From the IMG/VR virus record IMGVR_UViG_3300012927_000093, positions 1-62,268 of that record: 62,268 bases of DNA; one strand, given 5' to 3'. Numbering within the stretch: the first letter of the stretch is position 1; each line of letters begins with the position of its first letter. The notes under the pieces were generated by a model. It was not told the DNA's origin. It saw only the letters and a list, made by a program, of their open reading frames with translations, and did no database searches. Shown piece after piece: positions 7,820 through 61,437 of the stretch. The translations under genes and the position numbers were made by a program. The DNA is from a virus (lineage: Duplodnaviria > Caudoviricetes).

Positions 7820-8746
7820 TCAGTGCCCGACGTGCGGCGCCTTCGCCGCTTCATACGCCGCGATCTGCGCCTGGATGCTGAGCAGCAGCGCGTCAGCGGT
7901 CGTGGACGGTACCGGGGTAGGAACCGGGACTGGAGTGGGCACTGGAACCGGCACCGGGACAGGCGTGGGGCCAGTGGAGACGAACGGACCTGGCTGCCCG
8001 GTGACCTGCAAGAACGCCGCGTTGGCCGCGTTCACGTCCAGGCCTTCGGGGGTGAGGTTGTTCTTCACCCACTCCTGCGACACCGCGGCATAGGGCTCAT
8101 CCACGTAGGCGGTCCACGCGGCCGGGGTCATCTCGAAGTAGCCGCCCCAGGTGCTGCCCTTGATGTTGCCGCCCTTGGTGATTTTGTGGACGGCCACTGC
8201 GTGCCCGCCGAGGACGCGGTCCCGCTTCACGACGTCGAACACGGTGCCGTTGTTGAACGCGTTCTCGAAGCCCTGGGTGGCGGTGAACCCGATGTAGAGA
8301 TTCCCGAACAGATACAGCGCGGCGCGCATCTCTTCGAAGTCCTTGGGGTCGATAGCGAAGTAGGCGGCGAGCTTGTGCCCGGCAATGCCGGTCTGCTGCC
8401 AGTACTTGAGGACGGTCTGCATGTCGCCGCCCTGGTCGGTACTCGGGTTGCCCGGCACGTAGCCAGTGGACCCTGAGTAGAACTTGATGACGTCGGCGTT
8501 CGAGGGCACGATCGGCGCGCCCTGACCGAACTGGGAGAACGCGGTCTCAACGTGCGCGGCGGCGGCGGCGGTGCAGTCGCCGAGGCTGTCGTTGGAGTCC
8601 ATGGGGAGGTTCGCGGCGGCCGGTACGTAGGCCACCACGTCGGGCACCGTTCCGGCGTAACCGGCCTTCAGAACGCTCTTGAGCGGGATGCTCCGCACCA
8701 GGTCCCGGGGGGCACTGGGGAGCCTGCCCAACTTGTGCTTAGCCAC
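7820..8746 (-). CDS. Papain-like cysteine peptidase with a Pro-Val/Thr linker
   Basis: NDSLGDCTAAA (Cys), GGHAV (His), STWG; C-terminal (PV/PT)n linker. Confidence 0.75.
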   Translation of the reverse strand: MAKHKLGRLPSAPRDLVRSIPLKSVLKAGYAGTVPDVVAYVPAAANLPMDSNDSLGDCTAAAAAHVETAFSQFGQGAPIVPSNADVIKFYSGSTGYVPGNPSTDQGGDMQTVLKYWQQTGIAGHKLAAYFAIDPKDFEEMRAALYLFGNLYIGFTATQGFENAFNNGTVFDVVKRDRVLGGHAVAVHKITKGGNIKGSTWGGYFEMTPAAWTAYVDEPYAAVSQEWVKNNLTPEGLDVNAANAAFLQVTGQPGPFVSTGPTPVPVPVPVPTPVPVPTPVPSTTADALLLSIQAQIAAYEAAKAPHVGH

Positions 8747-8767
8747 GTGAGTCTCCTGTAAATAGGG

Positions 8768-8814
8768 CCAGCCACAACCCGCGCCCAGGAGACGGAAACG
8801 CGGGTTGTGGCTGG
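8768..8814 (-). terminator. Stem-loop, probable terminator
   Basis: Perfect 16-bp inverted repeat CCAGCCACAACCCGCG/CGCGGGTTGTGGCTGG, intergenic. Confidence 0.6.
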
Positions 8815-8836
8815 GGTAACGGGGTGAAGAGGCAGA

Positions 8837-9166
8837 TCAGCCGGCGGGCGGCGGGGTGGCGGTCACGTCGAGGGACGCAACAGCCGCCTGCAGACCACTG
8901 AGGTCGAGGGCGGGGTTAGCCTGCTGAAGGGCCGCGATTTCAGCGTTGATCGCGGCAACGTCGCTGGACACAGACGCGGCGAGGGCGTCCAGGTCGGCCT
9001 GAGTGACAGCCATTTTCTCTCCTAATTGAGTGATGATTCCCGTCTGGCCAAGGACGTAAGACCAGAGGTCATTGAGACGTCGATCGAATTCGACGTGGGT
9101 GACGTAACGACTGGACGGCGGCGGTCCGGGTTGGGGTCCGGGCGGCGGCCCTGGATGTGGGCTCAT
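8837..9166 (-). CDS. Small coiled-coil protein; strong internal in-frame start at 9013
   Basis: ATGA overlap with upstream gene; AGGAG RBS precedes the internal ATG (MAVTQADLDAL...). Confidence 0.6.
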   Translation of the reverse strand: MSPHPGPPPGPQPGPPPSSRYVTHVEFDRRLNDLWSYVLGQTGIITQLGEKMAVTQADLDALAASVSSDVAAINAEIAALQQANPALDLSGLQAAVASLDVTATPPPAG

Positions 9167-9384
9167 GGCGATGCCCTTCGTTGAAGCGGTATCTGGCGCG
9201 CTACGCACTCGTCCGCCAACCGGCGCACGATGCAGGGAAATTCGGTGGCCGCCATCTGGGTGCAGCAGCCGTTGCAGCTGCCGTCGGCGGCCTGGATGTG
9301 CTTCTGCTGCAGGTAGATGGCCCTGCCGAGGTCACGACTCAGGAAGTTCAAGACAGCCGACTGTGCCCGTTCCCCCGGCGTCAC
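9163..9384 (-). CDS. Small Zn-binding hypothetical protein
   Basis: H...CxxC...PC pattern; coupled to neighbours. Confidence 0.55.
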   Translation of the reverse strand: MTPGERAQSAVLNFLSRDLGRAIYLQQKHIQAADGSCNGCCTQMAATEFPCIVRRLADECVARQIPLQRRASP

Positions 9385-9387
9385 GGT

Positions 9388-10005
9388 TTAGGGGCCGGTC
9401 GGCTTGAGACTGATGAGCTTGGCGAAGACGATGGTCTGCTGCAGGTAGTTGTGCTGCGCGGTGTCCAGATCCCCCGGGCCGCAGGTGATGGCCACGAGTT
9501 CCGCGCCGTCCGCGTCGCCGTACACGGCTTTAGTGGGGAACGCCGACTTGGCGATGATCAGAACTTTGGACACCTTGAACGTCGCTGTCTGCGCATCGGA
9601 GCGCAGCACGGAGAGTTCGGCGCCCACCTTCACCTTCGCCAGGTCGGCGAAAGCGCCCTGCACGTGGTTGGCGTTGATGTGCCCGACGATCACCGCACGT
9701 TCTACTGCCTGCGGGTATTTTCCGACAGCACTGTCGCCGGGCACCGGACTTTGCCGGAACCAACCGATCATCCGGGGCGACGACAGCGGTGGCACACCGA
9801 GTGTGTGATCGGGGTTGAGATCGACCTGCATGGTCAGGTTGTCGTCCAACTCCAGGGACGGGATCTTGACCGAGGTGATCGTCACGCTCGACGTCACCGG
9901 CGGCGGCGCGGTTCCCGGCGAGGTCTCGTTCGGCGGCGCACTCGGCGCCGCTGGATGCGAACAGGCCGCCAGGATCAGGACGAAGACGACCAGTCCGGTC
10001 CGCAG
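9388..10005 (-). CDS. Class F sortase, lipoprotein-anchored (likely CTG start)
   Basis: IPSL, GWF...PG, VIVGH (His), F..L..VKVG, FPT..VYG, LVAITCG (Cys), NYL; signal (M)RTGLVVFVLILAAC. Confidence 0.88.
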   Translation of the reverse strand: MRTGLVVFVLILAACSHPAAPSAPPNETSPGTAPPPVTSSVTITSVKIPSLELDDNLTMQVDLNPDHTLGVPPLSSPRMIGWFRQSPVPGDSAVGKYPQAVERAVIVGHINANHVQGAFADLAKVKVGAELSVLRSDAQTATFKVSKVLIIAKSAFPTKAVYGDADGAELVAITCGPGDLDTAQHNYLQQTIVFAKLISLKPTGP

Positions 10006-29453: not shown

Positions 29454-30704
29454 TTATCCACCGTCTGACGGGCCGAGAGACGAGCCGCCGATGACCGGGT
29501 CGGTGCCCATCGGCGCGTTCAGCGGAGTCGGATTGGTGGGCTGCATGTATTCCTGGCCGGCGCCGTTCGGCAGCGGCGGCAGATCCTCATAGGCCCGGAT
29601 CTCGTCCACGTTGAACGCGCCCATTTCCCGCATCACCCGGTAGAACTCGGCACGGGCGATCGAGTCGCCGCGTAGCAGGCTGTCCAGGTCGTAACGGGCC
29701 TTCTGACCAGCGGGTAATAGTTCCTTGGAGATCCGCTGCTCGGCCGGGTTCAGCCAGTTCGGGCCGAGATCGAACTGGTTGAAGCCGCGGGCCTGCTGTT
29801 CAAGACCGCTACCCCACGACGTGGTCTTGTCCGTCTGGTACATCAGGTACGGCGGGATGCCGAAGAACCGCGCGGCCTCTGTGACCTGGAAGTCCCGGGA
29901 CTCGAGCAGCTGCGCATCGTCGGCCGGCATCGTCAAGCTCTGGAACTTTGCGCCCGAGTCGATCACAGCGATCTTGTGCGCGCCGTCGATGCCTGCGAAC
30001 TTCTCCGCCCAGCGGGCCTGCAATGTTTCGGCCTGGGATTGGTCCAGCTCGGCCTCGGTGGACAGCAGGCCGTTGAGCATGTTGCCGGACTTGAACAGTC
30101 GCGCGGCGGTAGCTTCCGCTGCTTGCGACATGCCGATCGCCTGGGCGGCCATCCGGACCGGGGAGATCCCGGCGATGCCGTTGTAGCCGATGCCTGGGAT
30201 GTGCATGACCTCGTTCGGGGTCAGCACGGTCATCGTGCCGTCCAGCTGGGTGATCTTGAAGATCTTCCCGGACGGGTTCTGCGGGATCGCCTTCACCGGC
30301 AGCACCACCACCCGGTCTGGCTGGATCGGGTTCAGGTGATCCAGCTTGCCGCCGCGCTTGTAGACCTTCTGCGAGAAGCAATTGCCCCACAGGCAGCGGT
30401 GCGCGGCCATCAGGCGCCAGTATTCGAGCGGCGTCATGTCCGGGTGCGGGTCGTCCAGGATGGTTCCAGTGACCGGCTTCTTGGTGGTCATGTCGATGGC
30501 GTTCAACGGCAGCGACCCGGCGAGCCCGGAGATGAGGCTGACGGCCCGGTAGACCGCTGACATGTTCATCGCGGTGTACTCGGTGACCGGAACGCCCGAA
30601 TCGGTCGGCTGACCGCCGAACAGGCCCAGAATCGACAGTGAGTTCAGCGGGACGAGCGGGTTTTCCAGGTTCGCCCGACGTTCGCGGAGCTTAAAGAGGC
30701 CCAT
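29454..30704 (-). CDS. Portal protein, HK97 family
   Basis: SAVYRAV, LWGN, EVMHI, GISP, DAQLLESR.FQV.E.AR.FGIPP, DEIR..EDLPP. Confidence 0.96.
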   Translation of the reverse strand: MGLFKLRERRANLENPLVPLNSLSILGLFGGQPTDSGVPVTEYTAMNMSAVYRAVSLISGLAGSLPLNAIDMTTKKPVTGTILDDPHPDMTPLEYWRLMAAHRCLWGNCFSQKVYKRGGKLDHLNPIQPDRVVVLPVKAIPQNPSGKIFKITQLDGTMTVLTPNEVMHIPGIGYNGIAGISPVRMAAQAIGMSQAAEATAARLFKSGNMLNGLLSTEAELDQSQAETLQARWAEKFAGIDGAHKIAVIDSGAKFQSLTMPADDAQLLESRDFQVTEAARFFGIPPYLMYQTDKTTSWGSGLEQQARGFNQFDLGPNWLNPAEQRISKELLPAGQKARYDLDSLLRGDSIARAEFYRVMREMGAFNVDEIRAYEDLPPLPNGAGQEYMQPTNPTPLNAPMGTDPVIGGSSLGPSDGG

Positions 30705-30888: not shown

Positions 30889-32481
30889 TCACCACAAGTT
30901 GGGCACTTTTCGCTTCGCCAGCGACCCGTGTTCGATGGCCCAACCGCGGGCTTCGTAGGCCAAAAGCGCGGCCATGAAGGCCGAAATTGACTGTGCGTGA
31001 GACTTCTTGACGATGCGTTGGTAGTGCTCAGGCTGCCCAGGGACCCGTTCCTCAGCCGTGGAACGCCGCTTTCCGTTGGCCAAAGCGGCCCCAGCGGCGT
31101 GCATAGTGAGGATTTCGGTGCCGTCATGGGTCAGTTCGTCGCCCCGATGGGCGGTTTGGAACCGCTCCACCAGCTGATCCATGCGCAACTCGGAGTTGGT
31201 CCACAGTTCGTAGACCTTTTTCGGGTACTGGCCGTCCCAGCCGTTGACCTCGGTCTGCCAGCCGCTCGGCGTGCAGAAAAACGCCTCAACCTCGTACGCC
31301 TTGAACACGTCCCGGACGACTTGGTCGACCTCGTCGCGCGGAACGGTCCATTCGTCCTCGCCCGGGGCCCGTTCCCACGACCGGAGGTGGAAAATGTGCC
31401 CGTCGGAGAGCCTGGAGGCGCACAAACTGGTCGCATCCCGGTTCTGGGAGCCGTGGAAGCCCAGCGCGATCTTGTCTCGGGGCCGCAACCGCTCCCCGGG
31501 GCGGGCTTGGGCGTCCCACAGGATCATGTCGACGGCGTCGCGCGAGCCGACTGACACTTCGTTGAGGTAGTAGCGGCGAACTTCGCCCTCGGAGTGCGCC
31601 GGGTTCTGCACTTCCTTGGCGATACGGCTCAACCGGACCCAGCCGCCGCGTTCGGTAGCGCTGTCGCCGTATACGTAGGCCAGTTCAGCCATCAGTTCGG
31701 CGTCGTCCATCAGGTTCACGCGCCGACGAGGCGGCCGATAGTCCACATAGACATACCGATCGGCCGCTTCGTAGGTCCGCTGCGCCACCGAGCGCTCACT
31801 CGGGTCGTATGCGTTGCTGATCTCGATCCAGCGACCATCCATGCCGCCCAAGTTCCGCTTGAGCGTGCGTGCAAGCTTGAGTCCGCCACTGGTTTCGGTC
31901 ATCAGCTGGGTCTCGGTCATGCTCACGAACGTCACCCGGGCGCCCTGGCGAGCTCGTGAGGACGCCGTAACCGGCTCAATCCGCCCGTTGCCCGGCAGGT
32001 TGATGCGGGTCTCCCCTGGATCCAGGCCCGGAGTGCTCTGCAGTGGGCCCTCGCGCAGCATCGTGAGCAGCGGCCGGAACGTGTTGCCGGTCTGCTCCTC
32101 AGCGTTACCCGCGCACTGGATCCACGGGGTGGGCCACGGACGCCCTACCGGCTCGCCAGCGGCGTCCCAACCGGCGAAGCGCACCGGTCCGAGCGCCTCG
32201 GCGCAGATGATCGCCGCCGCGAACGGGTCCTTTCCCCATTTCTGCGGCCTGACCAGCAACGCACCGGAGAACCGGAACGCGTCCGACCCCTCGCCGTCGC
32301 GTGCATTCGGTACCAGCCGGTAGGCGTGCAGCAGGTGCATGTACTGCTCGTCGGTCAGGATGTACGGCTCGCCCATCCGCTCACCGTCGGGGATGATCAC
32401 GTTATCTTCGATAAAGGCTGCGACAGCGTGCCCCAAAGACGGCCAGCGGTCGCCGTCCGGGTCTGGCCCACGCCACGGCAT
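30889..32481 (-). CDS. terL: Terminase large subunit 1 (ATPase motifs present; nuclease acidic triad substituted)
   Basis: LTDEQ, RPQKWGKDP Walker A, EEQT.N, SNAYDP; nuclease motifs read GFHGS, FCTPS, SISA. Confidence 0.92.
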   Translation of the reverse strand: MPWRGPDPDGDRWPSLGHAVAAFIEDNVIIPDGERMGEPYILTDEQYMHLLHAYRLVPNARDGEGSDAFRFSGALLVRPQKWGKDPFAAAIICAEALGPVRFAGWDAAGEPVGRPWPTPWIQCAGNAEEQTGNTFRPLLTMLREGPLQSTPGLDPGETRINLPGNGRIEPVTASSRARQGARVTFVSMTETQLMTETSGGLKLARTLKRNLGGMDGRWIEISNAYDPSERSVAQRTYEAADRYVYVDYRPPRRRVNLMDDAELMAELAYVYGDSATERGGWVRLSRIAKEVQNPAHSEGEVRRYYLNEVSVGSRDAVDMILWDAQARPGERLRPRDKIALGFHGSQNRDATSLCASRLSDGHIFHLRSWERAPGEDEWTVPRDEVDQVVRDVFKAYEVEAFFCTPSGWQTEVNGWDGQYPKKVYELWTNSELRMDQLVERFQTAHRGDELTHDGTEILTMHAAGAALANGKRRSTAEERVPGQPEHYQRIVKKSHAQSISAFMAALLAYEARGWAIEHGSLAKRKVPNLW

Positions 32482-32484: not shown

Positions 32485-32766
32485 TTATGGGTAGACCGTG
32501 AAGGTGCTGGCTAGCTTCGCGGCCGTGTACTGCGCCCACTGGCCGTTGTTGTAGCCGACGTAGCTGCCGGTCGGGACCGTGAACACGGTGCTGTTGTTCG
32601 AGATCACCACCGCGTTGGTGGTCTCGCCGGACAGCGTGTCGGCGACGACCTGGATGTTGAGCGCCGGGTACGCCGCGATCAGCGCGGTCTGCAGGGCGCT
32701 GACCGTGCTGGAGTACTGCGTGAAGGTCAGCAGCGGGGACAGGTTGACGGTAGGCAGATACGTCAC
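32485..32766 (-). CDS. Hypothetical protein
   Basis: 93 aa, RBS AGGAG. Confidence 0.6.
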   Translation of the reverse strand: MTYLPTVNLSPLLTFTQYSSTVSALQTALIAAYPALNIQVVADTLSGETTNAVVISNNSTVFTVPTGSYVGYNNGQWAQYTAAKLASTFTVYP

Positions 32767-32774: not shown

Positions 32775-33128
32775 CTACGGGACGGGAAACGGATCGGGCA
32801 CACGAGAACCCAGGTTGATCTCACGGTGGACGGTGATCTGCTCCCCGTCGCGTTCGCCGTACTCAAGCCATATGATCTTGTTGACGATGTCGGTGCCAGC
32901 TTCGCCTTGGCGCTCCACCCAGTGCGTCAGCAGCACTTCGGCCGGGTCGATGCCGTGCGCGGAGAACCAGTCCTGCCAGAGCTGCACATGCCCGGCTGAC
33001 TCGTGGTTGATGTCCTCGCGGAAGTAGTCCCGCACGTGGTAGTGGCCGTCTTCGGTGCAACCGTGGTCGGGACCACGGGCGCTCTGCGGGCAGCGGCGTA
33101 GCTGGGAACCACGCTTACGGTGTTCCAT
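32775..33128 (-). CDS. Hypothetical protein (N-terminal C..H.C..H)
   Basis: 117 aa, overlaps the upstream gene. Confidence 0.55.
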   Translation of the reverse strand: MEHRKRGSQLRRCPQSARGPDHGCTEDGHYHVRDYFREDINHESAGHVQLWQDWFSAHGIDPAEVLLTHWVERQGEAGTDIVNKIIWLEYGERDGEQITVHREINLGSRVPDPFPVP

Positions 33129-35049
33129 AGAACGCCTTCTGGTTCGCTTCGGCGGTCATCCGATCCAAGGTCGGCAGCACCGACGCCCAGAACACCGCCT
33201 CACTGAAATTCATGGCCAGCGGGGCGAGGGACCCGCTGCGGACCACGCCGCCAATGGCGAAACGGTCCCTCGTGGGCTCACCAACACCCCGGACGTAGGC
33301 GACCGGTGCTAGGTCGACCGCCGCGTCCAGCCACTGGGCCATCACCGTGCCGGTGTCTGTCCCTGACATTTGGTGGATGGAGCCGTTGAACGCGTTGCCG
33401 GCGCCCTGGTAGGTGGCGTCACTGGACACGATCTGAATGGAGACCAGCGGGCGGGCCCTGGACAGTCCGCCACCGGCGACGTTGTCCGGTTGGTTTAGCC
33501 CGTACTGGAAGTTGGTTTGGGCGATGACCGCCTCGGCCCACCAGCGTTTCTGCGCGACCGGGGTAGCGGCAGTCAGCACCCCGCACACCGACGCTGAACC
33601 AGCGGCAAACAGGTTCGGCGTCGTCGAGAACACCACGTCGTCGACACCGTCGAACGTGGCCGCGGGCTTCCCACCGGAGGTGATCACCGCGCCGGATGAG
33701 ACGAGCTTCGGCTGTGTGGTGGTGGTGGCCTGAGTGAGGTGCCTCGTGTTACCGGACTGGTCGTACCAGGTGTCTACGAAACCGTCACCGGCCCCGCAGA
33801 AGGTCAACAAGCTCGCGGTGTCCAGGGCGCCGGAGACGAACCCGATGTCCTGGGTGGTGCTGTCGGAGCTGCGGCGCACCTTGACCGCGCTACCGGCATA
33901 ACCAGGCACGACGAGGCGCAGCGAGTAGGCGCGGGCGGGAACGACGGACTGCCCGAGCCCGTGGTCAACCGGCGTTGCGGACACCGTGGCGGACACCGTT
34001 CCCGGCCCGGCAGTGGACACCGGGATCACCCGGAAGTCATAGCTCGTGCCGGTAGTCAGCCCCGTCGCGTTTGCGGTGAGGCCGGCCGTTGTGGTGGCGA
34101 TGGAAACCCACGTGCTGCCAGCGGTGGTTTTCTGCTGAAGGTTGTAGGCCCCGGCCCCGGACAAGGCGCTCCAGGTCAGGGTGAGCGCGGTGGCGCCGAC
34201 GCTGCTGGTCGCCAACCCCGTGACCTGACCCGGTACGGCTGGCGGGGTGGGGTCGGACGCGCCGGTGAGAACACGCTGGTAGGCGTCGAACATGCTCCGA
34301 CCCATGACCCGCTGCGCGACGGCGTTGTAGTGGTTACCGTCGCCGAGGTTCTGGCCGTATACCCCCGCCGCGATCCGACACCGGGTGTTCCTTCCGGGAG
34401 TCCCCAAATGCACCGTGTTGACCGCCGCCCTGGTGCCGGTGGCCAGGTACTCCGGGACCATCTGCCCCATCACGAACGGCAGGCTGGGCAAACCCAGGTC
34501 GGTGCGGGCGCCGGTGATCAGCGCATCCAGGTCGGTTTGATGCGTTGCGCCGCTGATCCCGTTGTCGCCGTCGGTTTCGCCCTGAATCCAGAGGATTGCC
34601 GCGATCCGCGCGTTCGTTCCCGCCGCCGCGAGTGCTGCTTGTGCCTGCGCGACGGCTTGGGCGTAGAGACCACCCGCCACGCCTCGGCGCCACCCAGTTG
34701 CCGATGCGGTTGACAGCTGAGTGCCGCCGAGCGCGGACGGCACCAGCAGAACCCTGCGGTTCACTGGGGACGAATGCAGGTACCAGCGGGCGAACACCAG
34801 GCCAGGGCCGATTCCGGACGGCACGTCCAGCATGGCCAGCGGCTCAATAGCTTGGGAGATGACGCCGGCGTAAGTGCCCGACGCGCCCCACTGCTGAATG
34901 CGCGGATCGGACGGGTCGTAGCGGGTCGTGTCGTAGGGGGTGCCCCTGCCGCTCATGTTCGACTGACCCCACAACAGGATCAGGTCATAGCCGACATCGG
35001 CGGTGCTCAGGGCAGCACTGGCGGACGACGAGACATTTAGCTTCGACAC
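33115..35049 (-). CDS. SGNH/SASA carbohydrate acetylesterase + FN3 + lectin-like domain
   Basis: GQSNM (Ser), WIQGETD, DGNH (Asp-His); FN3 PGQVTGL...LTW...GLTTGTSYDFRV; AYSLR...WYDQSGN...FDGVDD. Confidence 0.85.
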   Translation of the reverse strand: MSKLNVSSSASAALSTADVGYDLILLWGQSNMSGRGTPYDTTRYDPSDPRIQQWGASGTYAGVISQAIEPLAMLDVPSGIGPGLVFARWYLHSSPVNRRVLLVPSALGGTQLSTASATGWRRGVAGGLYAQAVAQAQAALAAAGTNARIAAILWIQGETDGDNGISGATHQTDLDALITGARTDLGLPSLPFVMGQMVPEYLATGTRAAVNTVHLGTPGRNTRCRIAAGVYGQNLGDGNHYNAVAQRVMGRSMFDAYQRVLTGASDPTPPAVPGQVTGLATSSVGATALTLTWSALSGAGAYNLQQKTTAGSTWVSIATTTAGLTANATGLTTGTSYDFRVIPVSTAGPGTVSATVSATPVDHGLGQSVVPARAYSLRLVVPGYAGSAVKVRRSSDSTTQDIGFVSGALDTASLLTFCGAGDGFVDTWYDQSGNTRHLTQATTTTQPKLVSSGAVITSGGKPAATFDGVDDVVFSTTPNLFAAGSASVCGVLTAATPVAQKRWWAEAVIAQTNFQYGLNQPDNVAGGGLSRARPLVSIQIVSSDATYQGAGNAFNGSIHQMSGTDTGTVMAQWLDAAVDLAPVAYVRGVGEPTRDRFAIGGVVRSGSLAPLAMNFSEAVFWASVLPTLDRMTAEANQKAFYGTP

Positions 35050-35330: not shown

Positions 35331-35771
35331 TTAGCCCGCCTCCGGGTCCACTGCCTTGAGCCGGCGGCGTGCCGGGGCTGCCTCGCGCTGCTCCTCGACC
35401 TCGTCCGCGACGATCTCCCACTCCAGGCGCTTGAGGGCCTGCGGGTTGAGTCCAAGTCGGTCCTGCATCGCGGTCATCGAGTTCAGCGTCTGCGCGGTGG
35501 CCACGTTGTTCTTGGCCTCGTTCTCCACGGCGAGCGAGACCCGCACGTACAGGGCGATCGTCATGTCGATGTGCATCCGCACCCACGCGTGGGCCTGCGC
35601 GGTGTGCCAGAGCGCGTCCCAGCGGTGCAGCTCGAAGTCCGTGGCTTCCATCAGGGGCCACTCCGGGATCGGGCCTGAGTAGCCCTCCATCGGCAGCTGA
35701 ACCTTGGAGCTACGTGGGAGGTTGCGCCGGATCGCGTTGGGGTTGCTCAGTGGTCCGCGGCTACCGCTCAT
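35331..35771 (-). CDS. terS: Terminase small subunit 1
   Basis: SRGP..NPNAIRRN, PEWPL, W..LW.T.QA.AW, DRLGL.P..L.RL.W; RBS AGGAGG. Confidence 0.88.
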   Translation of the reverse strand: MSGSRGPLSNPNAIRRNLPRSSKVQLPMEGYSGPIPEWPLMEATDFELHRWDALWHTAQAHAWVRMHIDMTIALYVRVSLAVENEAKNNVATAQTLNSMTAMQDRLGLNPQALKRLEWEIVADEVEEQREAAPARRRLKAVDPEAG

Positions 35772-35811
35772 CGGTCACCTCCTGGGTGGTTGATCTGGGA
35801 GAATGCGGTGC

Positions 35812-36300
35812 ATGCCCTGCTATAGCGCCGAGTGCGAGGAATGCGACGGCAGTGGGTTCGTCGTGACGTACGACGACGAGGACAATTGCCGGTGCCACTA
35901 CCCGACGAACGAGCTCTGTGACGCGTGCCGGGCGGAAATCGAACGCTGCAAGGCATACGTCGAGGAACGTCGCCGGCCGCGTCTGGAAATGATGCGCTCC
36001 ATGAAGGCGGCCATTGCCGAGATGCCCGGGAGGGCCGACATGGTGTTCGAAGTGTTGGTCGGGATGAACTACCCCGGCCCAGACGGCGTGGAGCGACGGT
36101 CCGAGGCCAACGCGATCGTGACGTACCTGCCGCCGGAGTCGCTCTCCTGGTTGATCAAGGACGGCCACGTCAAGCCGCTGTGCACCACCGGTGAGTCCCA
36201 CGACGAGTGCCCGTGCGAATGGCACCGGTTAGCCGCGCTAACCAAGGACGATCAAGAGTGGCTGTCGCTCTACGGCTGGACCAATCCGTTCAATGCCTGA
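35812..36300 (+). CDS. Cys-rich hypothetical protein (leaderless start)
   Basis: GAGAAT-7nt-ATG; several CxxC motifs. Confidence 0.6.
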   Translation: MPCYSAECEECDGSGFVVTYDDEDNCRCHYPTNELCDACRAEIERCKAYVEERRRPRLEMMRSMKAAIAEMPGRADMVFEVLVGMNYPGPDGVERRSEANAIVTYLPPESLSWLIKDGHVKPLCTTGESHDECPCEWHRLAALTKDDQEWLSLYGWTNPFNA

Positions 36301-36493
36301 GTGGTCGTTCGACGCCACGGTCAGCACGCATGATCTTCTCAAGCGCGGCGTGACCGAAGCCCGGTTGCCCGGTTCTCCGCACCACCACCACCGGGTCGTA
36401 GTGGCCGCTGAGACCCGCGACGAGGCCGCGTTGCTGGCCGCGCAGATGGTCTCCTGCACCGCGATCTGCACGGGGCTCTACGACCGCATCTGA
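36293..36493 (+). CDS. Hypothetical protein
   Basis: HRVVVAAET..EAALLAAQM; coupled to the upstream gene. Confidence 0.6.
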   Translation: MPEWSFDATVSTHDLLKRGVTEARLPGSPHHHHRVVVAAETRDEAALLAAQMVSCTAICTGLYDRI

Positions 36494-36499
36494 TACCCG

Positions 36500-36930
36500 T
36501 ACGCGCATGATCAGCGCCGGCTCAAAATCCGTACAGACCGCGAAAAACCGGGAGGAAGGGCCTGCGTCTTGATCGATTGACCTTTCGATGCGCGACGCGT
36601 GTAAGGTCTGCGCAGGTCAGGGGCTTGCGAGCTCGAGCCTGGCCGCCGGCGTGGAGCTCTGCCCTGGCCTGGTTCGGTTTGAGAAGAAGATCATTTAGAT
36701 TGTGTGTGATGGGTATGCACTCACACATACACACACGCCTGGGCGGGCACGTGCACATGGACAGTGGGTGGGTGCACGTGGTGCCTCGAGCATGGAGCTC
36801 ATAGGTGGTTGCACCCATGCATGGAGCTCATGGGGATGGGCAGTGCGGGTTGAGGGTGCGGCTGCCTCGCCGGCGCACGGGAGGGAGGGGTGCGGAGGGT
36901 GACCGGCCCGTGCCCTACAGGTAGGGCGTG
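36500..36930. other. Non-coding region, putative genome-end (cos/pac) region
   Basis: Long gap between the HNH side and terS; biased composition, repeated GCATGGAGCTCAT, GTGCAC and CA runs. Confidence 0.45.
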
Positions 36931-36936
36931 TAGGCG

Positions 36937-36975
36937 TTGTGCACAGCAAGCAATGCGAGTAAGCTACTGTGCATG
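36937..36975 (+). promoter_or_regulatory. Leaderless sigA-type promoter, copy 1
   Basis: TTGTGC-17-TAAGCT-ACTGTGC-ATG. Confidence 0.7.
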
Positions 36976-37356
36976 ACCATCATCCGCGCTGCAGCACTGC
37001 TCATAGCTGGTGTGGCAGCTGGTGCCCTCATCACGCACTACAGCATGAGCACTGAGCAGCACAGCGTTGAGGCAGTGCATGTGATCGAGGTGCAGGCGCC
37101 CGATGCAATGCCGCCGTCCACCTACCTGGGCGAGAACGACCCGATCGTGCCCCTGGTGTGTGGTGTGAACCTGAATTGCTCCCAGGTGGACCGGCAGATT
37201 GCTGCCCAGAAGGCCCCGAAAACTCTCAAGGCGAAATCCGCCGCTAACTCTGCGCCCACCACCACCAACACCACGACCAAGTCGGTGCGCACCTCGACCT
37301 CGAAGTCTGGCGCGCACAGCACAACCGTGACGACAACCCACACGACCAAGCATTGA
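36973..37356 (+). CDS. Membrane-anchored/secreted protein with a Thr/Lys-rich tail
   Basis: N-terminal hydrophobic helix; low-complexity C-terminus. Confidence 0.6.
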   Translation: MTIIRAAALLIAGVAAGALITHYSMSTEQHSVEAVHVIEVQAPDAMPPSTYLGENDPIVPLVCGVNLNCSQVDRQIAAQKAPKTLKAKSAANSAPTTTNTTTKSVRTSTSKSGAHSTTVTTTHTTKH

Positions 37357-37421
37357 GCCCAGCGCTCCTGGGTCGCCCGCTCAACCAGTGGTTGGGCGGG
37401 CGATTCTCTGTGCCAAGCTCA

Positions 37422-37459
37422 TTGACATCGTGCCGCTTGAGAGTAAGCTGCTGTGCATG
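37422..37459 (+). promoter_or_regulatory. Leaderless sigA-type promoter, copy 2
   Basis: TTGACA-16-TAAGCT-GCTGTGC-ATG. Confidence 0.75.
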
Positions 37460-37696
37460 ACCACCGCATACGACCCGCACGCTGACTGGGCTCATGAAGA
37501 CCGCGCGATCAGCACCTGCGCGCTACAGCCCGTCCTCGGCCCCATGGTGTACGGCGATGCGTGCGACATCCGCGTTGGCCGGCGCCAGTGCGGTAGCGAG
37601 CTCGGTGTCCGTGAAGCACACGACGCTGACGGCCGCACCCGCATCATCTGCGCCCTGCATGCCCGCAAGCTGTTCCCGAATGGAGAGCAGCGATGA
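37457..37696 (+). CDS. Small Zn-finger protein A
   Basis: CDIRVGRRQCGS...CALH. Confidence 0.65.
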   Translation: MTTAYDPHADWAHEDRAISTCALQPVLGPMVYGDACDIRVGRRQCGSELGVREAHDADGRTRIICALHARKLFPNGEQR

Positions 37697-37902
37697 CATC
37701 CGCTGGATGCGACATCAAGATAGATCGTCAGCTATGCGGTAGCCAACTCAGTCTCCGGCAGGTCGTGGACTTCGATGACCTAGGAGTCACCCACACCCGC
37801 ACGTTGTGCGCGTTGCACCAGGCGCGCTACTTCGATGCACGCTACGTACGAGAGCCGGCATTCGTGCAGACGCTGTCGTTCCGGCACGTACCCGTCGAAT
37901 GA
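37693..37902 (+). CDS. Small Zn-finger protein B (paralog of A)
   Basis: CDIKIDRQLCGS...CALH. Confidence 0.65.
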   Translation: MTSAGCDIKIDRQLCGSQLSLRQVVDFDDLGVTHTRTLCALHQARYFDARYVREPAFVQTLSFRHVPVE

Positions 37903-39134
37903 CCGTCTTCGTCGATGGCGGACTGGCCGGTGAGGACGTGCATCTCCTCGTCGGTCAGTCCGTCGTCACCGTGCCTGGCATTGGCCGCTACCGCATCAAC
38001 GACAACGGCACGTCCACGCTCATGACCGGCTCGAGAGGAAAACCGAAGGTGACCGATTTCAGCGAGTTTGCCGCCCGCATGGGCATCAAGGTGAAGGAGC
38101 CGAAGCCCGTTGTGGTGCGCGAAGCCGCATCGGCGGCTTCGAGGTCCAAGGCAGTGCGACCGACCGACATCATCACGATGATCGGTCAGGAGAAACTGCG
38201 CGTGCGGCTGACAGCCCATATGCGGGCCTCGAAGCTGCTCGGCAAGCCGGTGGGTCACATCCTGCTGCAAGGCCCTCCAGGTCTCGGCAAGACCAGCATT
38301 GCGATGCTCATTGCCGACATGGCGGGTGGCGATCTCGTCATCGCATCCGGTGATGCGCTCAAGACGCCCGAGACGCTGGTCAACGAGCTCGGAGAGCTCA
38401 AGGACGGCGACGTGTACTTCATCGAGGAGATGCACGGTCTGCCCGAGAAGCCCAAGCGCACGTTGTTGACCGCGATGGAGGACGGTCGCGTGGACATCGC
38501 GGTCGGCTCCGGTTCGCGCAGCGTCGTCGAGTCCAAGATGCTGAACGACTTCATCCTGGTCGGCGCCACCACCGAACCGGGCAAGCTCCCGCAGCCGCTA
38601 CTCGACCGATTCGCCATCCGTGGGTCGCTGGACTACTACGACGCTGACGAGATCGCCGAAATCATCACCCAAGCCGCTAAGCGCGACCGCATCAAGATCG
38701 AAGAGGAAGCGGCTACCGAACTAGCGCACCGCAGCCGGCGCACGCCCCGGATTGCGCTCAACCTGCTGGCAATGGCCCATGAGTACGCGGTGGCGTCCGC
38801 TGACTCGACCGATGTACCGGTCACCGTGCTGGACGTCAACCGGGCCCTGGAGATGGAGGACATCGACCACAACGGGCTGACCAAGGCAGACCGCTCGGTG
38901 CTGTGGGACCTGTGCAAGGTGCACAAGGGCGGTCCGGTGGGCCTGACCAACCTGGCCACCGGCGCGGACACCGACAACCGCACGCTTGAGTCCATCGAGT
39001 CGTACCTGATCCGGGCCAAGTACATCATCCGCACCGGTCAGGGCCGGGTGGCGACGAACTGGGGATTCGAGGCTGTCGGGCTCGAGCCGCCGGTGACCGC
39101 GCCGCACGCGGAGGACATGGAGATGGAGGACTAG
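37899..39134 (+). CDS. ruvB: RuvB-like Holliday junction branch-migration AAA+ ATPase with N-terminal extension
   Basis: VRP...IGQEK, HILL.GPPGLGKT, FIEEMH, AMED, LVGATT, PLLDRF, SRRTPRIA, GGPVGL, E.YLI...RT.QGR. Confidence 0.88.
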   Translation: MTVFVDGGLAGEDVHLLVGQSVVTVPGIGRYRINDNGTSTLMTGSRGKPKVTDFSEFAARMGIKVKEPKPVVVREAASAASRSKAVRPTDIITMIGQEKLRVRLTAHMRASKLLGKPVGHILLQGPPGLGKTSIAMLIADMAGGDLVIASGDALKTPETLVNELGELKDGDVYFIEEMHGLPEKPKRTLLTAMEDGRVDIAVGSGSRSVVESKMLNDFILVGATTEPGKLPQPLLDRFAIRGSLDYYDADEIAEIITQAAKRDRIKIEEEAATELAHRSRRTPRIALNLLAMAHEYAVASADSTDVPVTVLDVNRALEMEDIDHNGLTKADRSVLWDLCKVHKGGPVGLTNLATGADTDNRTLESIESYLIRAKYIIRTGQGRVATNWGFEAVGLEPPVTAPHAEDMEMED

Positions 39135-39481
39135 ACCCGGTCGTTCTTGTGCGAGTTGCAACCCCTGCACAGCACGGCGTAGTTGCTCGACTCGTGCATG
39201 AGGTCGGGGCGCACGGTGCGAGGAATGATGTGGTCAGCCGTGAGCTGCTGCGTTCCCGTCGCGTTCGGCACCACCGGATGCGGCGGGAAATCGTTCCACC
39301 CCGGACACACCCACCCGTAGCGAGCGACCCAGTCTGAGATCAGCTGGTGCGCGATGCGCTGGTGTTGCCGCCCGAGCCCCTTGGACGTGGCGCTGGCCCG
39401 GTAGCTGGCGGTTCCGCACTTGCCCCCGCACCGTGAGCCGCGGGTGGGTTGTCCGCAGGCAAGGCACGGTTTGAGCGCCAT
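39131..39481 (-). CDS. Packaging-type HNH endonuclease
   Basis: KPCLACG; LTADHIIP...N..VLCRGCNSHK; position upstream of the end region and terS. Confidence 0.85.
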   Translation of the reverse strand: MALKPCLACGQPTRGSRCGGKCGTASYRASATSKGLGRQHQRIAHQLISDWVARYGWVCPGWNDFPPHPVVPNATGTQQLTADHIIPRTVRPDLMHESSNYAVLCRGCNSHKNDRV

Positions 39482-39546
39482 CGCCGGCGTCCCTTCAGCA
39501 CGTCACGTCTTAGCTGGCATCCGGCGCATTCGCATCGCACAAACAC

Positions 39547-39585
39547 TTGGCATCCATATCATGTTGCTGTAAGCTTCTGTGCATG
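39547..39585 (+). promoter_or_regulatory. Leaderless sigA-type promoter, copy 3
   Basis: TTGGCA-17-TAAGCT-TCTGTGC-ATG. Confidence 0.7.
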
Positions 39586-39843
39586 ACGACGACGAGCTCG
39601 GTGGAGATGACGATCAGCACCTTCGGCCCCGACGGTGCCGTGTTCCTGGCTCCGACCACCAGCACTTGCCCCGACACGTGGCGCGAGGAGCTCGCCAAGA
39701 AGCGGCGCAACCGGAACCTGGCCGAGATCGCCGGCGGCTTCGAGTTCGACTCTTACTGCCCCGGCTACTGGGACCACCAGGAGGACGCCGAGTACATGCA
39801 GGCGATCCGCACTCGGGTCACGTTCACCTCGAAGGAGATCTGA
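39583..39843 (+). CDS. Hypothetical protein
   Basis: 86 aa leaderless ORF upstream of ku. Confidence 0.6.
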   Translation: MTTTSSVEMTISTFGPDGAVFLAPTTSTCPDTWREELAKKRRNRNLAEIAGGFEFDSYCPGYWDHQEDAEYMQAIRTRVTFTSKEI

Positions 39844-39844
39844 C

Positions 39845-40636
39845 ATGTTCTCGAAAGCCACCTGGACCGGCACCATCTCGTTCGGCCTGGTCTCCGTGCC
39901 GGTCAAGCTGTACGGCGCGACCGAAGAGCACGGAATCGAAACGCATGAAGTCCACCCGGTCGACGGGGGTCGGGTGGGCCACAAGCGCGTGTGCAAGGAC
40001 TGCGACAAGGAGATCGCGTATGGCGATCTAGGCCGCAGCGTGGTCGATGTCGATGGCCACACGCACGTGTTCACCAAGTCCGAGCTCGACGCGCTGTCCG
40101 ACGCAAAAGACCACTCGATCACCCTGGACAGTTTCTGCGATCCGGACCAGATCGACCCGCTGTATCTGAGCAAGACGTATTACGTGCGGCCGGACTACAT
40201 GATCCGCAAGCGGGGCGATGCGCCCCGCGCGAACAAGCCGTTCGCGGTGTTCGCCGCTTCGTTGGCCAGCTCAGGCAAAGCGGCCATCGGTCGCGTCGTG
40301 ATGCGGTCGCGGGAATCCCTGGTGGCCATCACCATGCGCGAGGACGTGATGGTGCTGCGCGTGGTGCTGTGGGCCGATGAGATCCGTCAGCCGGTGTTCC
40401 AGGAGCCCGAGGTGCCAGTGGTGGACGTTCCCACTCAGCACGCCATGGAGGCGCTGCAGCTCATCGACGCGCTGACCATCAAGTTCGACATCAACTCGCA
40501 CGTGGACCGGCGCGAGCTCGCGCTGTCGGACCTGATCGCATCGCGGCGCGAGCCGGTCGAGAGCACGGACAGCGACGCCCAGGTGATCGAGCTGTTCAAC
40601 CGGCTGCCCAAGCCCGCCGTCACGCACGCCGTGTGA
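39845..40636 (+). CDS. ku: Ku DNA end-binding protein (NHEJ)
   Basis: WTGTISFGLVSVPVKLYGATE, GRVG.KRVC, IDPLYL.K.YY, AIGRVVMR.RE.L, LWADEIR; RBS AAGGAG. Confidence 0.93.
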   Translation: MFSKATWTGTISFGLVSVPVKLYGATEEHGIETHEVHPVDGGRVGHKRVCKDCDKEIAYGDLGRSVVDVDGHTHVFTKSELDALSDAKDHSITLDSFCDPDQIDPLYLSKTYYVRPDYMIRKRGDAPRANKPFAVFAASLASSGKAAIGRVVMRSRESLVAITMREDVMVLRVVLWADEIRQPVFQEPEVPVVDVPTQHAMEALQLIDALTIKFDINSHVDRRELALSDLIASRREPVESTDSDAQVIELFNRLPKPAVTHAV

Positions 40637-40652
40637 CGCCCAACAACTGGAC

Positions 40653-40979
40653 GTGACCACCACGGGAGGTGTAGAAACTGTGCGTAGCAATCTACGGACG
40701 GGGTGTGTGGTGGCGCGAGCATCAGCGGCGAGGCTGGCCAGCAAGATCGAGGAGCTGCAGGCCGAGTACGAACAGGCCGTCGCCCACCAACATGATGATC
40801 TACTCGGTGCGATCTCGAACGTTGCCGCTGTGCTGCGCAACGCTACCGAGCTGAAGATCAAGCTGGTGCGCGAGGCGCTAGCCCAGCACCAGGCGGGCAA
40901 CGGACCGGAGCGGCAGCAGATCGCCGCAGCGGCTGAGATGTCGCGCAACGCCCTGTACTACCCGCCGTACAAGGACTAG
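40653..40979 (+). CDS. Hypothetical helical protein, possible C-terminal HTH (start uncertain)
   Basis: RQQIAAAAEMSRNALY. Confidence 0.5.
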   Translation: MTTTGGVETVRSNLRTGCVVARASAARLASKIEELQAEYEQAVAHQHDDLLGAISNVAAVLRNATELKIKLVREALAQHQAGNGPERQQIAAAAEMSRNALYYPPYKD

Positions 40980-55414: not shown

Positions 55415-55456
55415 AGCGGGCGGTCGTACCTTCCTGGTCGGTGTGCTCGTTACGAG

Positions 55457-55500
55457 GAAAAGAGAGCCGTTTCTGCTGCCTAGGCGGGCGGCTCTTTTTC
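55457..55500. terminator. Intrinsic terminator after xis (A/T tracts on both sides)
   Basis: GAAAAGAGAGCCG...CGGCTCTTTTTC. Confidence 0.75.
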
Positions 55501-59507: not shown

Positions 59508-59939
59508 ATGGGTGACCACTCCGGCCCTTACGCGTCAACGGACCCGAACAAATCCCCCGAGGTCGTGGATGCCGAGGCTGCGTTGGCATATGCGCGGCTG
59601 CTGCGTCGTGAGGCGCCGAACGATATTGCCCGCGATCTTGGGATTTCGAGGGCGACTTTCTATCGCAGAATCGAAATGTTGATGTTGCGACATGACCGCC
59701 CTTCTCGATCTTTGATGCAGGTGATCGCGCACGACGAGCTTGATCAACTGACGCGGATGACGATGCAGCGGCTGCAGGAAGAGTGCTCGAACCAGGACTT
59801 TGTGAAGCTGGTGGGCGAGCTGCGCCAGCAGAACACGGCGCGACTCAAGCTGTACGAAGACGCGCCGGCGAACACCGATGAGGGTGAGTCCACCGAAGAG
59901 GATTGGGACGACTGGGAGTCCGATGACCGCGCCAGTTAA
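59508..59939 (+). CDS. Terminase small subunit-like protein 2
   Basis: HTH NDIARDLGISRATFYRRI, DELDQL helix, acidic tail; overlaps TerL2. Confidence 0.65.
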   Translation: MGDHSGPYASTDPNKSPEVVDAEAALAYARLLRREAPNDIARDLGISRATFYRRIEMLMLRHDRPSRSLMQVIAHDELDQLTRMTMQRLQEECSNQDFVKLVGELRQQNTARLKLYEDAPANTDEGESTEEDWDDWESDDRAS

Positions 59940-61437
59940 GCGCCGGCTCGAAGGTCCGCCCGGCTTCCGTCCCGAGCTCTACACAGCGAAGCTGCGCCAC
60001 GGCGCGTTCCGCACGCACACCCAGGAGTGCATCAACAAGCGCCGGGATTGGTGCCGCACCTCCCCGATCCTGTTCGCGCTCTACTACCTGGCACCGCACG
60101 TGATGCTGCCCGGGATGCTGCACGCGTTGAGCGATCTGCACATAGCGCTGGCCATGTCGGCGAAGCGGTGGATGCGTACCGACGTCGGCCCAAAGGAGAT
60201 CCGCGACGCCTGGGTAGCGCCCCGGGACGCTGCCAAGACGACGTGGCTGTTCCTGATCTTGCCGCTGTGGAGCATGGCGTTCGGGCACCGCAAGTTCATC
60301 GTCGTCTACTCCGACACCGAGGATCAGGCGAAGCTGCACTTGGCCACGCTCAAGCTGCAGTTCGCGCAGAACGAGCGGCTGATGCGGGACTTTCCTGAGC
60401 TGTGCACGCCGATGAAGACTGGCGGCCGGGCGCTTAAGGACAACGACACGACGTACCTGGCAGCCAACGGCGCGATCATCATGGTGAAGGGGATGAACTC
60501 AGCGACGCTGGGCGTGAAGTGGGACAACCTGCGCCCGGACGCGCTGCTGTTCGATGAAGTCGAGCCCAAGAAGGGCCGCTACAACGTCGAGATGAAGCGC
60601 AAGCGGCTCGAGGATCTGATCGACGTGATCTTGCCGTGCAACTTCTCGGCGGTGGTCCAGATCGCGGGGACGACCGTGATGGCCGGCTCGATCATTCACA
60701 ATCTCGTCGAGGGCGACGCGTGGGTGGCCGAGGAGAACATCACGGTCCATCACTTCCGGGGCATCATCGAAGACCCTGAGACCGGAGACGAACGGTCGCT
60801 CTGGGAGCCGAAGTGGAGCCTGGAGTTCCAGCGCGAGGAGCGGCTGCGCAACCCGCGCGGCTACGCCAAGAACTTCGACAACGCCCCGGTCGACGAGAAC
60901 GGCACGTTCTGGGACGACGACGACATCACCTACGACACGCGCCTGCTCGAGCACATCACCGAGCGAATCCTGGTCGTGGACCCGGCATCGAAGTCCAAGA
61001 AGACGAACGACGAGACCGGCATCGCCATGGTGTCCTATGCCGGCAACGTGCGCCGTGTGATCGTCGAGCGGGTGATGGGTGTGCGGCTGAAGCCAGACAA
61101 GCTACGCGAGCTGGTGCACTCGATCGTCCGCAACAACGGCATCCGCCTCATCGTGGTGGACGTGACCAACGGCGGCGACCACGTGGAGAACACACTGTCG
61201 CCGCTGCCGCCTGGCGTGCGGGTGTTCCCGGTGTCGCTGCGCCGATCGAAGATCGATCGGATCACGGACTTGCATGACTGCTACCTGCGCAAGCCGCCGA
61301 TGGTGGTGCACGCCCGGCCGATTTCGACGCTTGAGGCGCAGATGAAGGCTTACCCCAAGACGCTCCACGATGACCAGATCGACGCTGTGGCGCTCGGCAA
61401 GGAGTACTTCCACGGCGAGCTGAAGGCCGCTAGCTGA
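59923..61437 (+). CDS. Terminase large subunit 2 (orphan, no adjacent portal)
   Basis: APRDAAKTT Walker A, RPDALLFDEVE Walker B, AGT coupling motif, VVDPA and HDDQIDA nuclease motifs; RBS GGGAG. Confidence 0.88.
   Translation: MTAPVKRRLEGPPGFRPELYTAKLRHGAFRTHTQECINKRRDWCRTSPILFALYYLAPHVMLPGMLHALSDLHIALAMSAKRWMRTDVGPKEIRDAWVAPRDAAKTTWLFLILPLWSMAFGHRKFIVVYSDTEDQAKLHLATLKLQFAQNERLMRDFPELCTPMKTGGRALKDNDTTYLAANGAIIMVKGMNSATLGVKWDNLRPDALLFDEVEPKKGRYNVEMKRKRLEDLIDVILPCNFSAVVQIAGTTVMAGSIIHNLVEGDAWVAEENITVHHFRGIIEDPETGDERSLWEPKWSLEFQREERLRNPRGYAKNFDNAPVDENGTFWDDDDITYDTRLLEHITERILVVDPASKSKKTNDETGIAMVSYAGNVRRVIVERVMGVRLKPDKLRELVHSIVRNNGIRLIVVDVTNGGDHVENTLSPLPPGVRVFPVSLRRSKIDRITDLHDCYLRKPPMVVHARPISTLEAQMKAYPKTLHDDQIDAVALGKEYFHGELKAAS

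Follow-up and report, generated by a model that had tools for sequence, protein, structure and literature searches.

Loss of the catalytic aspartate triad from the HK97-type large terminase of a phage that carries a second terminase

The DNA considered here is the whole of the IMG/VR virus record IMGVR_UViG_3300012927_000093, a linear Caudoviricetes record of 62,268 bases (hereafter the window) that is labelled as soil metagenome, has a GC (guanine plus cytosine) fraction of 0.65 and is rated 91% complete by CheckV. The gene at its centre, at 30889..32481 on the minus strand, encodes a large terminase subunit of the HK97 type (TerL1, protein P0001, 530 amino acids (aa)) and matches the PHROGs families phrog_9 (E 9.5e-47), phrog_19179 and phrog_21277. 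TerL1 consists of an ATPase domain at about aa 1-320 and an RNase H-like C-terminal domain (C-domain) at about aa 335-530, and all three catalytic aspartates of the C-domain are replaced. At the first of these positions, the site of D302 in the HK97 terminase, the codon CAC (31453..31455, minus strand) encodes H343 within the motif GFHGS. At the second, the D388 site, the codon ACG (31270..31272, minus strand) encodes T404 within FCTPS, and at the third, the D471 site, the codon TCG (30982..30984, minus strand) encodes S500 within SISAF. An initial annotation, made from the letters of the sequence, had drawn attention to these codons, and their positions proved exact when the sequence was read again. 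With the metal-binding Asp triad gone, the alignment with HK97 shows that TerL1 would be unable to form the canonical two-metal site.

The assignment of TerL1 to the HK97 type comes from its predicted fold and from comparison of family profiles. None of the Pfam and NCBIfam models reaches threshold for TerL1 (PF20441 is on record, as a precomputed match, for one Asp-intact homolog), and a sequence search of P0001 alone against the PDB gave nothing useful. The AF2 (AlphaFold2) model of TerL1 has a mean pLDDT (predicted local distance difference test) of 86.6, and its best Foldseek match is 6z6d, the HK97 large terminase, over the full length (E 3.9e-22). Further matches include the T4, D6E and Sf6 terminases and the nuclease domains of G20c and P74-26, with the G20c nuclease 5m1f reaching a TM (template modelling) score, on the target, of 0.73. 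By the model and these matches, the C-domain has the RNase H-like nuclease fold. When the TerL1 family profile was compared with PDB sequences, 6z6d was the only terminase matched, at the N-terminus only (E 0.01). Since that match does not extend past the N-terminus, the residue mapping was made by hhalign, in which the profile of alignment A1 (33 TerL1 homologs) was aligned to HK97 gp2 from NC_002167 (Prob 91%, E 1e-6, 432 columns). This comparison pairs H343, T404 and S500 with D302, D388 and D471, respectively, K492 with K463, R78/K81/K84 with R56/K57/K60, and T189-E190 with D153-E154. According to PMC9410871, D302, D388 and D471 make up the catalytic centre of the HK97 terminase, and the other paired HK97 residues belong to its Walker A and Walker B motifs. 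In the AF2 model, strand 337-343 ends with H343, T404 follows directly on strand 397-403, and S500 opens the last helix, 500-517.

The initial annotation had recognized the three sites by motifs of actinophage terminases. These motifs are real: Kromp, a cultured Streptomyces phage whose terminase is the best cultured match to TerL1 (38% identity), has GFDGS, YFDP and KIDL at the corresponding sites, and the hhalign pairing bears out that the sites are the catalytic metal-site positions. The ATPase motifs that the same annotation described as kept are present as well, with RPQKWGKDP starting at residue 78 and SNAYDP at residue 222. TerL1 thus has the N-terminal ASCE ATPase of an HK97-type terminase, with Walker A, a catalytic Glu and a coupling motif, and is atypical at Walker B. 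There, nearly all members of the TerL1 family, with and without the triad, have Thr (or Ser) instead of Asp; in the window the site reads T189-E190 (31912-31917). The exceptions among 80 IMG/VR loci are L071, with D-E, and L062, with G-E; Kromp and HK97 have the usual D-E.

The absence of the triad is shared by a large group of homologs. A census of the best 120 clusters of TerL1 homologs at 90% identity, from roughly 1,700 homologs, found none of the three Asp in 73 clusters, three of which end before the third catalytic position, and all three in the other 47; no cluster has one or two. The 80 IMG/VR loci divide in the same way, with 16 lacking all three Asp and 64 having all three. Asp stands at sites 343, 404 and 500 in every one of the 47 Asp-intact clusters. 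In the 73 Asp-less clusters, site 343 is H in 61, I in 3, Y, F and T in 2 each, and R, Q and L in 1 each; site 404 is S in 43, T in 25, A and N in 2 each, and F in 1; site 500 is S in 70. No full-length Asp-less cluster is without the ATPase residues R78, K81, K84 and T189-E190. A quick IQ-TREE analysis of 81 rows, in which Kromp served as the outgroup, places all 16 Asp-less rows together in a single clade (SH-aLRT 100), whose sister is an Asp-intact group (support 98). Because the Asp-less rows form a single nested clade, the loss of the Asp residues is derived and happened once. The nesting among Asp-intact terminases also establishes, together with the phrog_9 match, the common descent of TerL1 with the HK97-type terminases.

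This distribution confirms that the loss of the triad is a clade trait, all-or-none, and not a sequencing error. The His codon CAC is one base away from an Asp codon. ACG and TCG differ from GAC and GAT at all three bases, as the initial annotation had argued in speaking of multi-base changes, and 73 distinct clusters from several sources are without the triad. A pseudogene or a decaying prophage fares no better. The portal, protease, capsid and tape-measure genes are intact in the window and conserved over six related records, which answers the question, raised with the first observation, of whether the element is decayed: it is not. The ratio of nonsynonymous to synonymous substitution rates (dN/dS) in TerL1 is also far below 1. 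Taken as an explanation of the missing triad, error or decay has no observation in its favour and a practically negligible probability.

The changes in the C-domain go further than the three sites. The Asp-less clade has neutral residues at seven positions (346, 379, 407, 436, 463, 469 and 476) where the Asp-intact clade is basic, and the former triad sites vary inside the Asp-less clade, with the exception of Ser at 500; judged by these residues, the active site appears dismantled beyond the triad. At the same time, the Asp-less clade has new near-invariant residues: H365 and H445 (each 73/73), E411 (70/73), R479 and H518 (each 64/73). The domain as a whole has been maintained by selection. 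In 10 pairs analysed by the NG86 method, dN/dS was 0.06-0.30 for the C-domain and 0.06-0.36 for the ATPase domain. The C-domain is under purifying selection, and the comparison of the two domains that had been proposed as a check finds both far below 1. The ratio of C-domain to ATPase divergence is likewise alike in the two clades (0.86-1.79 vs 0.97-1.71). The occurrence of domain-swap recombinants, and of inteins in six Asp-less homologs, is taken in the same sense.

A C-domain that is conserved and has new near-invariant residues might still cleave DNA through a rebuilt His/Glu site, or might have gained some other catalytic function. H365, H445, E411 and the common H343 read otherwise in the Asp-intact clade, and together with the purifying selection they are what speaks for this possibility. 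The old triad sites, however, tolerate eight different residues at 343 (H/I/Y/F/T/R/Q/L) and five at 404 (S/T/A/N/F), the seven conserved basic positions are lost, and H365, at the end of strand 363-370, would lie distal from site 343, a placement derived from the strand topology of the model and not from coordinates. To our knowledge there is also no precedent for a His-based site in this nuclease fold, which we count against the idea. A rebuilt or newly catalytic C-domain is thus quite improbable.

What the C-domain may be doing is hinted at by its relation to the portal. The portal gene (29454..30704, minus strand; PF04860, E 2.7e-79) starts 185 bases downstream of TerL1. P0001 itself is a recombinant with a breakpoint near residues 350-400. 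It shares 82-87% identity with one subclade (L002, L003 and L005) in the ATPase domain and 91-94% with another (L006, L007 and L010) in the C-domain. In six relatives, the identities to the window of the C-domain and of the portal are 64 and 60%, 64 and 60%, 92 and 82%, 61 and 55%, 58 and 55%, and 97 and 85%. The C-domain identity tracks the portal identity in all six, whereas the ATPase-domain identities of the same relatives, in the same order (86, 80, 65, 58, 62 and 93%), do not.

The genes around TerL1 form a packaging and head block in the order TerS1 ... TerL1 - portal - protease - capsid. Downstream of the portal, an S78 prohead protease fused to DUF6582 is followed by the major capsid protein. 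Upstream, the gene at 35331..35771 on the minus strand encodes a protein of 146 aa that we call TerS1, the small terminase of the TerL1 system. Its match to PF25673 (Terminase_7, E 1.1e-4) is sub-threshold and near full length, and the PHROG label for the gene is 'minor tail protein'. It is read as a small terminase because of this match and because of its position upstream of TerL; the gene immediately upstream of TerL is a TerS1 homolog in 59 of the 64 Asp-intact loci and 12 of the 16 Asp-less loci. TerL1 therefore has both the TerS and the place upstream of the portal that belong to an HK97-type terminase.

In the window, TerS1 is separated from TerL1 by inserted genes. Two of these are small genes followed by tblastn: orf117 (32775..33128, minus strand), with matches in 8 of the 16 Asp-less loci vs none of the 64 intact loci, and orf93 (32485..32766, minus strand), immediately upstream of TerL1, with matches in 6 of the 16 vs none of the 64. 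Neither has a family in PHROGs, Pfam or the ESM Atlas. Between TerS1 and orf117 there is also an inserted SASA-type carbohydrate esterase of 644 aa with an fn3 domain (33115-35049), for which no match was found among the crude open reading frame (ORF) calls for two of the relatives introduced below, G003 and G001.

If TerL1 no longer cuts DNA, other enzymes of the phage come into question. The gene content of long records was compared between the two clades. The long records (>=35 kb) comprise seven that are Asp-less, namely the window (G000), G001-G005 and the L187 contig, which are all the long Asp-less records in the collections searched, and 22 that are Asp-intact; genes in the relatives are crude calls based on ORFs and GC3 (GC at third codon positions). 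A second large terminase gene, TerL2-like, is found in 5/7 Asp-less vs 0/22 Asp-intact records, a Ku gene also in 5/7 vs 0/22, and an HNH endonuclease gene in 6/7 vs 16/22. The initial annotation had suggested looking for a second TerL beside Asp-less TerL1 genes, and these counts bear the suggestion out. A TerL2-like gene was not found in G001 or in G005, the latter 52% complete; Ku was not found in G002 (61% complete) or G004 (71% complete); G002, with a contig that stops some 1.9 kb upstream of TerL1, is the one Asp-less record in which HNH is missing. Both records that assemble as circles, G003 and the L187 contig, have TerL2. G001, with 69,151 bases, is rated 100% complete on a contig that is not closed; its interval from integrase to tail is covered, and it keeps HNH and Ku.

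TerL2 of the window (59878..61437, plus strand; phrog_38, E 3.1e-51) belongs to a T7-like family. Its start is probably the Met at 59923, and the database gene call is of 504 aa. An ORF at 59508..59939 on the plus strand overlaps the TerL2 start and encodes a protein with weak helix-turn-helix (HTH) matches only, which is the candidate small subunit TerS2. A gene for TerS2 stands at the same position in G003 (77-82% identity) and G004 (35%), and some gene is found there in G002 and the L187 contig. No Pfam model reaches threshold for TerL2 of the window, with PF17289 on record for 14 of 86 TerL2 homologs. Nevertheless, it has the complete motifs and fold of a terminase. R116 and K120 (Walker A), D226 (Walker B), T265 (coupling) and D368, D499 and D502 (nuclease) are invariant in 32 homologs, with an acidic residue at site 428; the AF2 model has a pLDDT of 89.6, and the best Foldseek match is the PhiV-1 terminase 8dgc_E (E 6.2e-18). 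In cultured relatives, a gene of this family is the sole terminase gene to be seen. TerL2 is 33-38% identical to the terminases of cultured Streptomyces phages such as Rooney and of the satellites Mulchroom and MiniFlayer, and in Rooney and Mulchroom the gene adjoins the portal, with no other terminase annotated in the stretch considered. Conversely, TerL1-family genes are absent from all 16 viral records that carry a distant TerL2-like gene. In the window, on the other hand, TerL2 is neither the sole terminase nor next to the portal: about 28 kb separate it from the portal and the other head genes, and it adjoins the integration module.

All five TerL2 copies of the Asp-less records have their ATPase and nuclease motifs intact, and two allele types can be told apart among them. 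One consists of G000 and G003 (91% identical) and the other of G002, G004 and the L187 contig, which are 45-49% identical among themselves and 34-38% identical to the first type. Small genes flanking TerL2 are conserved across both types. Compared with the window, the L187 contig is 95% identical in TerL1 and 85% in the portal, and only 36% in TerL2. The TerL2 allele type follows neither TerL1 nor the portal, and TerS2-TerL2 is a swappable cassette. In G001 (locus L090), TerS2-TerL2 is replaced, over the interval 3628-9811, by genes for a tyrosine integrase, a hydrolase and an FtsK/SpoIIIE-like ATPase of 710 aa that probably has a membrane segment; this module resembles one from actinomycete conjugative elements inside a phage-like contig. 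As a side observation on both terminase families, six Asp-less TerL1 homologs carry inteins. Homologs of 848-916 aa are found in the TerL1 family (P0037, P0040, P0045, P0051, P0054 and P0059) and in the TerL2 family (P0126, P0136 and P0158), with LAGLIDADG/Hom_end domains on record (PF14528, PF05204, PF14890), and inteins are apparently present in both.

The HNH endonuclease (39131..39481, minus strand; PF01844, E 3.8e-6) is a candidate for cutting in trans. Its residues C9, C18, H84, C105 and N109 are invariant in 15 sequences, so that the catalytic motif is intact. The order HNH-TerS-TerL is seen in the Asp-intact relatives and is kept in the Asp-less loci L014 and L015. In the window, the gene is not adjacent to the terminase genes; it lies 6.6 kb upstream of TerL1, between a gene for a RuvB-like AAA+ ATPase (37806..39134, plus strand; RuvB_N, E 3.2e-38) and a gene for a homolog of the DNA-end-binding protein Ku (39635..40636, plus strand; PF02735, E 1.1e-33). 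The RuvB-like gene, HNH and Ku are likewise grouped in G001, G003, G005 and the L187 contig. A complex prediction from the TerL1 and HNH family alignments returned a score of 0.02, which is no answer and no evidence either way. The whole block at 35803-40979 runs on the plus strand against its flanking genes, with the RuvB-like gene (no RuvA seen) and Ku on that strand and HNH on the minus strand; the Ku homolog of G003 (G003:C1:16288-17157) has one in-frame TGA inside the match. RuvC was considered as a cutter and rejected: its match is that of an ordinary junction resolvase, and blastp against the crude ORF calls of G003 and G001 found no homolog. Among the cutters that the initial annotation had listed, TerL2 and HNH are therefore conserved in the clade, whereas RuvC could not be found in these two relatives.

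The phage may also package its genome without any cutting, in the manner of phi29, if the DNA is replicated as a unit-length molecule that is protein-primed or hairpin-ended. The ATPase gp16 of phi29 offers the precedent, as a known packaging ATPase with a folded, catalytically inactive, vestigial domain derived from a nuclease, as given in PMC9410871 and PMC13595956. The data from the window and its relatives point in a different direction. TerS1 is retained, a Pfam scan identified an integrase gene, and the replication module consists of a PrimPol-helicase, an exonuclease and RuvC. The protein-primed polymerase PF03175 was found in none of 3 records, in a scan that did not include every window gene and without a search for a protelomerase. 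G003 and the L187 contig close as circles in assembly, with a 127-base overlap. Packaging without cutting, which had been raised as an option when the missing triad was first noticed, is disfavoured by the circles and the absent polymerase, and we regard it as very improbable.

Further observations concern the element and its biology. The right end of the linear window is not a molecule end, since a 22,872-base contig of a run that is the possible source of this DNA overruns it by 7,217 bases. The L187 contig (69,366 bases) is binned in a metagenome-assembled genome of Nocardioides, and because it encodes a TerL1 95% identical to that of the window, it suggests Nocardioides as the host group of the window phage. 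In an 11,770-base contig from another soil run, the window block 55363-58556 (3,192 bases, with a repressor-like gene and the integrase) is swapped for 3,637 other bases. The early genes and the TerS2-TerL2 operon (about 92% nucleotide identity) are kept on either side of the swapped block, and the integration module is therefore an exchangeable cassette.

Weighing these results together, we consider it probable that TerL1 is a motor only and that HNH and/or TerL2 cut the DNA in trans. Under this proposal, a single ancestral event would have stripped the C-domain of an HK97-type TerL1 of the Asp triad and of much of the basic surface. The ATPase would drive DNA into the prohead as a portal-bound translocase, the dead C-domain would be kept as a portal-side module for portal docking or DNA guidance, and further enzymes encoded by the phage would cut its replicated DNA in trans. 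That TerL1 cannot cut, that it serves as the motor, and which enzyme is the cutter are points that we infer from sequence comparison. The suggestion of a motor without cutting, put forward in the initial annotation, is supported in silico, with "cannot cut" keeping the standing of an inference.

Given a dead TerL1, the HNH endonuclease could well be the main cutter, with a chance slightly below even. It is the more universal candidate, as the ancestral partner of the family and as a gene present in every Asp-less record that covers the HNH locus. TerL2 as the main cutter is a more tentative assignment. Its occurrence is confined to the Asp-less clade, which makes it the more specific candidate, but G001 is without a copy. 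That both enzymes cut, or that another enzyme does, is somewhat more doubtful again. The Ku gene suggests, by analogy with the Cluster O mycobacteriophages, that the virion ends may be unable to anneal stably, being blunt or with overhangs of very few bases, and that circularisation of the genome would need end-joining. One can speculate, with rather little confidence, on a two-enzyme system that would account for all of these elements. TerL1 would be a pure motor, the TerS2-TerL2 cassette, with or without HNH, would make the blunt or nearly blunt ends and thereby explain Ku, and the C-domain with its new His and Glu residues would dock both portal and cutter.

Several points weigh against TerL1 as a motor served by cutters in trans. 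A structural model and an alignment cannot prove that TerL1 is inactive, and the new near-invariant His, Glu and Arg residues may be compatible with a rebuilt site or a new function of the C-domain. Thr in place of the Walker B Asp is unusual, although the Asp-intact clade has Thr too. The co-variation of the C-domain with the portal may be plain linkage, since the two genes are adjacent. The co-occurrence counts represent one event and not seven, because all of the Asp-less records come from one clade, and TerL2 is no universal partner, because G001 is without it across the interval from integrase to tail. The remaining points concern TerL2 itself. It is the most conserved of the proteins compared between the window phage and G003, at the 91% given above, and its ATPase is complete, more than cutting alone might require; for the latter reason TerL2 may act as a packaging enzyme in its own right, as the second of the phage or even as the principal one. 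It could be the real motor, since it is the sole, portal-adjacent terminase in cultured relatives.

In its strongest form, this last argument makes TerS2-TerL2 the real, self-sufficient terminase of the phage and reduces TerL1 to an accessory ATPase, an assembly factor or a vanishing relic. The complete set of motifs in TerL2, its confident full terminase fold, its high conservation and its family's solitary occurrence elsewhere all agree with such an arrangement. Against it, both domains of TerL1 are under purifying selection, every full-length Asp-less cluster has the ATPase residues, and TerS1 and the place upstream of the portal are retained. The TerL2 alleles, moreover, do not follow the portal, as the L187 contig demonstrates, and G001 does without TerL2 altogether. 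We consider a self-sufficient TerL2 unlikely on balance, and keep TerL1 as the motor and the cutting in trans as the preferred reading.

Among known systems, HK97 is the closest to the TerL1 system. HK97 gp2 (PDB 6Z6D) is the best structural match, with the same domain order, the Walker A Arg and two Lys and the catalytic Glu. TerL1 has K492 in the place of K463, the order TerS-TerL-portal-protease-capsid is the same, and the Asp-intact relatives have HNH-TerS-TerL as HK97 does with gp74, gp1 and gp2. The differences are equally clear. TerL1 has His, Thr and Ser for D302, D388 and D471, its family has the Walker B Thr throughout, and seven basic sites are lost; no Pfam terminase model matches at threshold; and the window has its HNH 6.6 kb away, plus a second terminase pair and Ku. 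According to PMC13595911, HK97 cannot do without its HNH protein gp74 in vivo; gp74 binds TerL and stimulates cleavage at cos.

The likeness to phi29 lies in the C-domain of TerL1, which has no triad and a reduced basic surface, but the domain is full-size. Mahler and colleagues are said to have described, in 2020, a vestigial nuclease-like C-terminal domain in phi29 gp16. TerL1 descends from the HK97-type family and not from the phi29 type, and while phi29 is without TerS and uses a packaging RNA (pRNA) and protein-capped, unit-length DNA, the window has TerS1 (a pRNA was not searched for) and its relatives assemble as circles. TerL2, for its part, resembles the T7-like PhiV-1 terminase (8dgc chain E) and its actinophage relatives in fold, in its intact motifs and in the small HTH gene upstream. 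It differs from the Rooney and Mulchroom terminases, which adjoin the portal, in its distance from the head genes and in standing beside a TerS1-TerL1 system.

A combination of Ku and HNH genes in genomes of about 70 kb is shared with the Cluster O mycobacteriophages (Corndog and others). These phages have genomes of about 70 kb, a Ku-like gene, HNH upstream of the terminase, a displaced terminase gene and 4-base overhangs, as described in PMC4351075. The Corndog terminase was considered as a parallel case to TerL1 and set aside: it belongs to another family, with an hhalign Prob of 0.13% against the TerL1 profile and a match to the Pfam family Terminase_6N. Inspected by eye, the Corndog TerL (L177 13529-15037) shows a possible first Asp and no obvious acidic helix motif near the C-terminus. 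Non-homologous end joining is reportedly used to circularise such Ku-phage genomes (Pitcher and colleagues, 2006).

In textbook cos and pac terminases, the motor and the cutter are in one protein. The literature searched, as far as its available text goes, describes neither an HK97-type terminase without the Asp triad nor a phage that pairs an inactive with an active terminase; the only ATPases for which it reports a vestigial nuclease domain without activity are of the phi29 type, so that phi29, where no cutting is needed, is the only established exception found there. A large HK97-type clade without a cutter in its terminase, which keeps TerS and the integrase and has circular relatives, would be a natural separation-of-function system. 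It could serve questions on the non-cutting role of the nuclease domain, such as portal docking or DNA handling, on the contribution of HNH in HK97-like phages, and on how two terminases may share the work. For the Asp-less phages, labels of 'terminase large subunit', and the packaging types that are predicted from TerL phylogeny, would be wrong.

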